Positions 43,416-44,138 of a stretch of DNA of 64,000 nt are shown here, piece after piece (the first letter of the stretch is position 1; every line of letters begins with the position of its first letter). The notes under the pieces are model-generated. The model did not search any database. It was not told where the DNA came from and saw only the letters and a program-made list of their open reading frames with translations. The DNA comes from Malacoraja senta (lineage: Eukaryota), in assembly GCA_038087875.1 (NCBI GenBank), contig CM075996.1, positions 2,296,001-2,360,000 of the forward strand, read 5' to 3'. A program made the translations under genes and the position numbers.

Positions 43416-44138
43416 TTACTGGGCTACCCTGGTTGAATACCTTGAAACAAATCTTCTCCGTCGCCTCTTGCCAAGGCCAAAGGGGCTCATTAACATGTAG
43501 AATAAAACGTCATCCTTTTGCTTCTGGATTAGTGATTCATTCAGCTTGCTGGTGCCGAGACGGTAGGGTTCAACAAGTGGTTGGAAGTGTCGGTGCGTCT
43601 TCACCTTGCTATGTGACACAGTGACGGAATCAAAACAGTCAGTCAGTACAATTAATCTGGCCCATGTGAACACGCAGTCAAAACAGCGACCCACACCTCA
43701 AGCTCTGGAACTCCCTCCCTGTATCTCTCCAACCTGTTCATTAATAATTTCCATAAAAACAAAGGATTTTGTTTTGATAACAGGACATTTTTGCTCAGTG
43801 ATATGCCTTTTGGGTGGTCCACTGCCCTGATATCACTCCATATTGGAGTGTAGCCAATTGCACTGATGAAACTCCACATTAGAGTGTGGCCCACTGCACT
43901 GAAATCTCTCTATATTGGGCTGTGTTTGATTTTACTGTGAACCTGAATTATGTTGTAGCTTTCTTCTTTCACACTCCTGAAGTCTGATTGTAAAGGTATG
44001 CCGATTTTCAAATTGTGTTGCTGGAAAATAGAGTTGATTAAAAATGAATACTCGCCTATTGGCATTGTCCACCTCCTGTGCCTCACCAGGAGTTCCAATG
44101 TTTAAACAGAAGAGGGCAACAAGAGCAATTATCATCAT
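43416..44138 (-). CDS. AM-like prepropeptide copy 4, cysteine-less. Exons 44138-44056 and 43608-43416: MMIIALVALFCLNIGTPGEAQEVDNAN-S-KVKTHRHFQPLVEPYRLGTSKLNESLIQKQKDDVLFYMLMSPFGL-GKRRRRRFVSRYSTRVAQ*
   Basis: Signal exon coding sequence identical to copy 1; mature exon open and keeps GKRR; in frame only if the 37-nt middle exon (43733-43697) is skipped. Confidence 0.6.

Follow-up and report, generated by a model that had tools for sequence, protein, structure and literature searches.

Organization of a probable AM5-type locus

The window, meaning the whole 64,000-nt stretch of Malacoraja senta DNA that was analysed, holds an adrenomedullin-like locus with a signal exon and two pro-exons; of its terminal exons, one is canonical and ring-bearing, two are degraded and two are derived. 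The derived terminal exon is placed between the signal exon and the pro-exons. We refer to the right-hand set of duplicated exons as copy 2 and to the left-hand set as copy 1, or the twin. The features around copy 2 are the following.

44810..44930, minus strand: candidate TATA box (44930-44925) and putative non-coding first exon with a GT donor at 44809, read from the sequence, with a presumed function
44056..44152, minus strand: copy-2 signal-peptide exon, ATG at 44138; same protein in both copies, 27/27 identical to Rhinoraja longicauda XP_078286608.1
43227..43949, no strand: direct repeats of 135 bp (43227-43361 and 43812-43949) that flank the derived terminal exon
43416..43608, minus strand: copy-2 terminal coding exon, with a ring-less peptide, a G-K-R amidation/cleavage signal and a short tail; covered by contigs of X1 and X2
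42415..42559, minus strand: pro-region (middle) exon, downstream of the copy-2 terminal exon
40510..40653, minus strand: second pro-region exon, open, resembling the pro-regions of skate and ray AM5-type precursors
37350..37591, minus strand: canonical AM5-type terminal exon with ring, frameshifted ahead of the first Cys in the assembly
50120..50370, minus strand: degraded terminal-exon copy with stops and indels; twin at 24030-24280

The 135-bp repeats are consistent with insertion of the derived terminal exon into the intron behind the signal exon, a mechanism that their placement would suggest. An apparent frameshift in the first-listed pro-exon comes from an extra C in a homopolymer at 42481; this base is missing from all four runs compared and is likely an assembly error. 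The canonical terminal exon spans 183 nt between anchors, compared with 194 nt in the relatives X4 and X9, and given the frameshift that accompanies this 11-nt loss in the assembly, this skate may be without an ordinary AM5. In the R. longicauda model XP_078286608.1, the identical signal exon is followed directly by a terminal exon whose peptide is intermediate, and the short-precursor form is therefore older than this species; an annotated stand-alone short precursor was not found.

Several lines of evidence place the locus in the CT/CGRP/adrenomedullin family. The copy-1 terminal exon matches Pfam PF00214 above the cut-off (E 2.7e-7), the copy-2 exon aligns at the DNA level to this twin and to the AM5-type exon, and the signal exon is that of a skate adrenomedullin model. 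In a tree of 123 distinct peptides and 39 columns, from which matches lacking the ring-to-Tyr/Phe-Gly stretch were excluded, the canonical exon (37591-37350) fell among ray and shark precursors (99/80). These belong to a larger clade of 24 rows (99/77, unstarred), distinct from those of AM1 and AM2, and one of the clusters in this 24-row clade is named Adrenomedullin 5. The long branches of copies 1 and 2 were unplaced in this tree; the two are linked to AM5 through DNA, because the intron of the derived exon matches that of the canonical exon at 95.5% identity. The AM5 label is likely, though not proven, for the locus. The origin from an adrenomedullin gene put forward in the preliminary description holds, with an AM5-type gene rather than AM1 as the likely source.

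AM1 itself lies on a separate scaffold (C3). There are six PF00214 matches in the genome, with no AM2-like exon among the six. By likeness, we take a tandem pair on the same scaffold (G000 C3:43057234-43059890) to be calcitonin- and CGRP-like exons, and an exon at C9:32056992 to be amylin-like. A 2018 review (PMC6283891) states that cartilaginous fish had so far yielded no published CGRP gene and only two reported adrenomedullin genes, and that the family inventory in them is incomplete. Neither the copy-2 exon, the pro-exon nor the short-precursor part of XP_078286608.1 gave any match in protein searches, although these were weak and word-limited; the ESM Atlas gave no usable match, and PDB matches for copy 2 were rejected as chance helical repeats. 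No duplicated, fast-evolving or ring-less skate adrenomedullin was found in the full-text literature searched, a body from which subscription papers are largely absent.

To the right of the window, within 0-100 kb (L013, L015, L018, L019 and L022), lie exons of transportin-3-like, Ras-family, Mob1/phocein (Pfam) and armadillo-repeat genes, the last of which presumably resembles HSPBP1. A carnitine-acyltransferase synteny probe had no match on this scaffold among the 25 matches listed.

The order of exons from 44164 to 37350 on the minus strand (signal, derived terminal, pro-, canonical terminal) would let relatives with both terminal exons intact choose between them by alternative splicing from a single promoter, in the manner of calcitonin/CGRP.

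The copy-2 terminal exon lacks the disulfide ring

The locus lies within a tandem duplication, of which the relevant elements are listed here.

16667..32002, no strand: left copy of the 15.3-kb duplicated segment, beginning at an assembly gap
42780..58110, no strand: right copy of the duplicated segment, finishing at an assembly gap; units spaced 26.1 kb apart
17966..18062, minus strand: copy-1 signal exon, with a GC donor as in copy 2 (GC at 17964)
17348..17516, minus strand: copy-1 (twin) terminal exon, a ring-bearing AM-like peptide with a Phe-amide end and a stop right behind G-K-R
43473..43589, minus strand: predicted copy-2 mature peptide, His to Leu-amide, 39 aa, net charge 0, with a presumed N-terminal cut

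Further copies were found neither elsewhere in the assembly nor in the 100 kb on either side, among the best candidates. The twin peptide aligns weakly to the human AM and AM2 chains; the copy-2 exon has no Pfam match at E<=10.

In copy 2, a stop-free frame of 63 aa (43607-43416, minus strand) contains no Cys and ends in G-K-R-R-R-R-R, a Gly plus dibasic amidation signal, followed by 11 residues. It consequently lacks the N-terminal disulfide ring, which is a named feature of CT/CGRP/adrenomedullin agonists (PMC6283891). Alignment to the twin exon (17515-17348) shows that the first ring codon changed from TGC to TAC and the second to AGC (43565-43563 and 43550-43548, minus strand), and that copy 2 is 21 nt shorter, the loss being in frame. 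A gap placed so as to delete LMHGLSH leaves 36 mismatches and one that deletes the second Cys leaves 37, so that the second Cys may have been either replaced by Ser or deleted. The ancestral R-V-K-R has become K-V-K-T-H-R, so that the furin-type site is gone. The last 13 residues are hydrophobic (GRAVY +1.34, compared with about -1.4 in the twin). The anatomy given in the preliminary description (both Cys gone, 21 nt lost in frame, G-KRRRRR kept and a hydrophobic C-terminus) is thus borne out by comparison with the twin.

Contigs from X1 (190 nt, 1 difference) and X2 (115 nt, 0 differences) span both changed codons and the deletion, and the copy-2 exon is therefore not an assembly invention. 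Both runs are of the same species and from one study, possibly from one animal or the assembly's own source.

Divergence is concentrated in the peptide and falls mainly on copy 2

Between copies 1 and 2, substitutions number 34/117 aligned nt in the peptide (29%), compared with 17/693 downstream (2.5%) and 24/14521 upstream (0.17%). At the rate of the 3' flank, ~2.9 would be expected in the peptide (Fisher p 6e-19; Poisson p 7e-25). The boundaries of this divergent island coincide with peptide processing sites. Most of the changes (~30/34) are non-synonymous, with dN at 0.44 and dS at 0.16; this ratio alone is no proof of positive selection, because the excess is not significant (Fisher p 0.063). 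Where direction could be assigned, 18/22 bases changed on copy 2 (p 0.004), with 8 more base differences not polarisable, as did 8/8 residues (p 0.008). Despite the in-frame 21-nt deletion, the frame, the Gly-Lys-Arg and the Pro/Gly turn are intact.

The paired loss of cysteines had been taken earlier as a sign of selection rather than decay. This loss is unremarkable given that 19/31 aligned residues differ between copy 2 and its twin (~0.38 if sites changed independently). Selection over decay is instead supported by the concentration and the asymmetry of change, and on this footing that part of the preliminary description stands.

Between skates, the signal exon is identical at 27/27 residues, while the peptide retains 17/38 in copy 1 and 8/31 in copy 2. 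Contigs of the relatives X3, X4 and X9 align to both flanks but are interrupted from 43488 to ~43590; the X16 contig breaks at 43470, and X17 has no cover of the divergent interval. Over that interval X4 is 15 nt and X9 17 nt longer than copy 2 (lengths only, with no peptide sequence), and the 21-nt deletion is therefore not common to X4 and X9. Between anchors, the orthologous exon of X9 is 4 nt shorter than copy 1 and may be out of frame. The canonical AM5 peptide is identical to R. longicauda XP_078286843.1 at 31/38 residues, and the ring-to-amide stretch of AM1 is identical to RefSeq skate proteins, which points to a skate as the source animal. These comparisons indicate that fast change of the peptide began ahead of ring loss, and diversifying selection on the peptide is likely.

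X4 (record 22) and X9 (record 28) each have a second, more divergent signal-exon contig over 44045-44156, which suggests more paralogues in other skates.

A changing target may account for the copy-2 peptide

Starting from the exon anatomy, the duplication, the hypervariable peptide in near-identical flanks and the asymmetry toward copy 2, we tentatively favour, at somewhat less than even confidence, the hypothesis that the copy-2 exon forms the ring-less end of one member in a tandem pair of shortened AM5-type genes, and that it encodes a secreted, amidated peptide of ~39 residues under diversifying selection toward a new, fast-changing target. Under this hypothesis, an extra AM5 terminal exon would have come to lie behind the signal exon in a skate ancestor, yielding a short precursor without a pro-exon. 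The GC donor of the signal exon would be spliced to the first AG, at 43609, to give a 91-aa precursor, from which signal cleavage, cutting at basic sites and PAM amidation would set free a Leu-amide peptide containing a single helix and an S-P-x-G turn. The target would lie beyond the conserved hormone axis (a parasite, a microbe or a mate-side receptor in mucus or the reproductive tract), and recent duplication or gene conversion would have homogenised the 14.5 kb upstream while sparing the peptide.

We consider a changing and probably external target the best of the available explanations because rapid change preceded ring loss and spares the leader; a target outside the hormone axis would explain why fast change affects the peptide but spares its signal exon. 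The speed of peptide change would be hard to reconcile with a conserved self receptor, and the identity of the target (parasite, microbe or mate-side receptor) is a guess. Against this hypothesis stand the GC donor, the non-significant dN/dS, the lost furin-type site, the X9 exon length, the several dead exon copies in the locus and the lack of any annotated stand-alone short precursor among the search results. Behind the external target we rank present-day silence, then antagonism at the skate's own receptor, then a mutational island and finally allelic mis-assembly.

A bolder extension, which we regard as doubtful, is that skates have converted an AM5 hormone exon into a leader-conserved, hypervariable family of secreted peptides engaged in an arms race. 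Its copy-2 product would be the first vertebrate peptide of the CGRP/adrenomedullin family to be encoded by a gene without the ring, an expressed Leu-amide that blocks CLR/RAMP (the skate's own, its mate's or a predator's) or has switched receptor, for example to a parasite neuropeptide receptor.

The signal-exon donor is the main risk to expression

Two splice-site features bear on whether the precursor can be made.

44048..44055, minus strand: copy-2 signal-exon donor, non-canonical GC (44054), with 8/11 matches to the U1-complementary consensus, +4 to +8 included
43609..43625, minus strand: shifted splice acceptor; the ancestral AG at 43625-43624 is gone, reading GT here and AT in the relatives X4 and X9

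The donor dinucleotide is GT in 5/5 relative runs compared and GC in 2/2 runs of this species, in which it is common to both copies. In human genes only ~15-18% of +2T>C donor changes keep their activity, strong sites doing so more often (PMC12805630), which counts against an expressed copy-2 peptide. The next AG, at 43610-43609, lies 15 nt downstream and in frame; upstream of it, as far as 43658, there is no other. Among three candidate donors, the 44056->43608 junction is the sole choice predicted to keep the frame to G-K-R (91-aa product), in agreement with the junction that had been proposed; the two alternatives yield dead-end frames of 19 and 41 aa. The preliminary description had also named a 37-nt exon whose inclusion would defeat the peptide. 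This stretch measures 37 nt in copy 2, 39 nt in copy 1 and 35 nt in X3 and X4 and is absent from the precursor models of relatives; we reject it as an exon, and it is probably intron. If included, it would leave a dead frame of 52 aa. Judged from the splice sites, the main risk to the copy-2 peptide would thus be the species-specific GT>GC donor change and not the 37-nt stretch.

This donor change is also the starting point for an unlikely but serious alternative, in which a once-selected gene is now silent or decaying: the GC donor would have inactivated both copies here, and the divergence would be a relic. The loss of the ancestral acceptor and furin site fits such a history, as do the frameshifted canonical AM5 exon, the two degraded exons in the locus, the possible frameshift in X9 and the polyadenylation signals, which are variant only, with no AATAAA within 1.1 kb downstream of the copy-2 exon. 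However, the 8/11 match of the GC site, with +4 to +8 included, comes close to the signature of active GC donors (PMC12805630). Moreover, the copy-2 changes arose within ~2.5% flank divergence, so selection would have been recent, and 34 changes plus one indel have accumulated, yet there is no stop or frameshift. RNA folding of the copy-2 exon is ordinary (z 0.43).

Predicted behavior of the peptide at adrenomedullin receptors

The disulfide loop is needed for CLR activation (bioRxiv 10.1101/2020.02.28.970301), and because the ring is absent, the copy-2 peptide would no longer activate CLR/RAMP receptors. If its C-terminus still bound the ectodomain, it could serve as a natural antagonist or decoy at the skate's own CLR/RAMP, a role that we consider improbable. 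In its favour, besides the missing activating ring and the adjoining ring-bearing twin, alignment from the amide in AM numbering gives Leu46-Met47-Ser48-Pro49-Phe50-Gly51. As described for human AM in the same source, Leu46 favours RAMP1, Met47 is tolerated and an aromatic residue at 50 (Trp in that work, Phe in copy 2) lifts ectodomain affinity from micromolar to nanomolar (bioRxiv 10.1101/2020.02.28.970301).

The analogy to AM22-52 and CGRP8-37 that the preliminary description had drawn is not supported in that form, in that the seven deleted residues align to AM 22-28, part of the helix that those dual-site antagonists keep. Copy 2 would thereby be closer to weak ectodomain-only fragments than to AM22-52. 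Furthermore, although the S-P-x-G turn is kept, the terminal residue is Leu and not the Tyr/Phe of the family (137/150 family matches fit the ring...Tyr/Phe-Gly pattern; on inspection by eye, 12 of the 13 remaining ones carry Tyr-Gly), and the CLR pocket is where a terminal Tyr/Phe is anchored (bioRxiv 10.1101/2020.02.28.970301). Finally, fast change across skates before ring loss is unexpected with a conserved receptor. A single-sequence AlphaFold model of low overall confidence places a helix at residues 21-40 (mean pLDDT 69, pTM 0.31), the seven helix residues after the ring being deleted.

The copy-2 peptide has a net charge of 0 with one His; a cationic antimicrobial role, which requires a positive charge, was rejected on this count, and the neutral charge likewise speaks against membrane lysis as an antimicrobial mechanism.

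Mutational and assembly explanations

Local hypermutation, template switching or a gene-conversion boundary, rather than selection, could in principle have made the divergent island, and we judge this very unlikely. It would explain why dS inside the island (0.16) is also above that of the flank (0.025), why several codons carry multi-base changes and why the upstream edge resembles the end of a conversion tract. A 9-nt piece of the new C-terminus is a reverse match to the nearby 3' UTR (p ~0.05 within 150 nt), but significance is lost when 3 kb are considered (p 0.36), which leaves template switching as a possible but marginal source for part of the C-terminus. A mutational cause also fits poorly with the position of both edges at processing sites, with divergence over the same interval in relatives and with the canonical AM5 exon, which has similar sequence and is slow (31/38 between species).

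Least probable of all is that the two copies are alleles of one locus put in tandem by the assembler or that copy 2 is an assembly error: the duplicated segments do run to both contig ends, the upstream divergence of 0.17% is allele-like, and in X2 the shared contig (depth 51) and between-copy contigs (four at 42-47, a fifth at 63.5) have ~2x the depth of each exon type (22.6 and 23.7), as from a heterozygote, but copy-2 contigs in two runs rule out outright error, and the X2 single-copy depth of ~15-18, a rough calibration from run sizes, is closer to 23 than to 46-51. Contig depth only hints at copy number, and the hint leans to two 26-kb units per haplotype rather than two alleles. Even if the copies were alleles, a polymorphism between ring and no ring would be a genuine feature.

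Comparison with known peptides

The CGRP/adrenomedullin family is a drug-target family, and all its vertebrate members bear the ring. A gene-encoded ring-less member, if true, would be either a natural antagonist paralleling engineered variants or a hormone caught leaving its receptor. That the exon is a rapidly evolving hormone derivative is well supported; an expressed peptide or an antagonist is unproven from these sequences. The twin pair, which shares leader and promoter and differs in ring versus no ring, offers a directly testable contrast.

The locus resembles AM5 and elasmobranch pro-adrenomedullin-like precursors (R. longicauda XP_078286843.1 and XP_078286608.1; Narcine bancroftii XP_069763560.1) in its signal exon, pro-exon, terminal-exon tail and G-K-R. 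Those precursors keep both Cys, the R-V-K-R and a Tyr-amide, whereas copy 2 has lost the ring and 7 residues, and its hydrophobic C-terminus ends in a Leu-amide. With synthetic AM(22-52), CGRP(8-37) and ectodomain-only AM(37-52) variants, copy 2 has in common the missing disulfide loop and an amidated C-terminal turn, and its Leu46 and aromatic 50 recall engineered high-affinity AM variants. Unlike these synthetic antagonists, it is encoded by a gene, is missing AM 22-28, retains an N-terminal remnant of 14 residues and has Leu in place of Tyr/Phe at its end.

Frog skin peptides and conotoxins are gene families with conserved leaders and hypervariable peptides. The skate locus is like them in its near-invariant signal exon and flanks, fast-diverging amidated peptide and tandem duplicates, and unlike them in having only two intact copies assembled and in its unrelated sequence. 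Calcitonin receptor-stimulating peptides (CRSP) keep the ring. They derive from CGRP, and copy 2 is similar to them in also arising from a lineage-specific tandem duplication in the CT/CGRP family; in laurasiatherian mammals, CRSP are lineage-specific tandem duplicates of this family with changed pharmacology (PMC6283891).

The ring is missing from insect DH31. Because DH31 is a calcitonin-like agonist (PMC3510462), a ring-less peptide need not be an antagonist.

At 43487-43473, the copy-2 peptide ends in F-G-L-amide, and its Phe codon is new at all three bases. The A-type allatostatin motif is given in the same source as (Y/F)XFG(L/I)-amide (PMC3510462). The copy-2 end fits three motif positions, with an independent origin; mimicry of an A-type allatostatin was rejected, since S-P-F-G-L has Ser where the motif requires an aromatic residue.

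Between the duplicates lies a LINE-type reverse-transcriptase frame of 504 aa (36702-34498, minus strand), and near the start of the window (3165-930, minus strand) are frames that we take, by likeness, to be the reverse transcriptase and recombinase of another mobile element. In sharks, two uncharacterised AM5-clade peptides, P0040 (Mustelus asterias) and P0050 (Scyliorhinus torazame), sit on long branches, and fast AM5 evolution may extend to this group.
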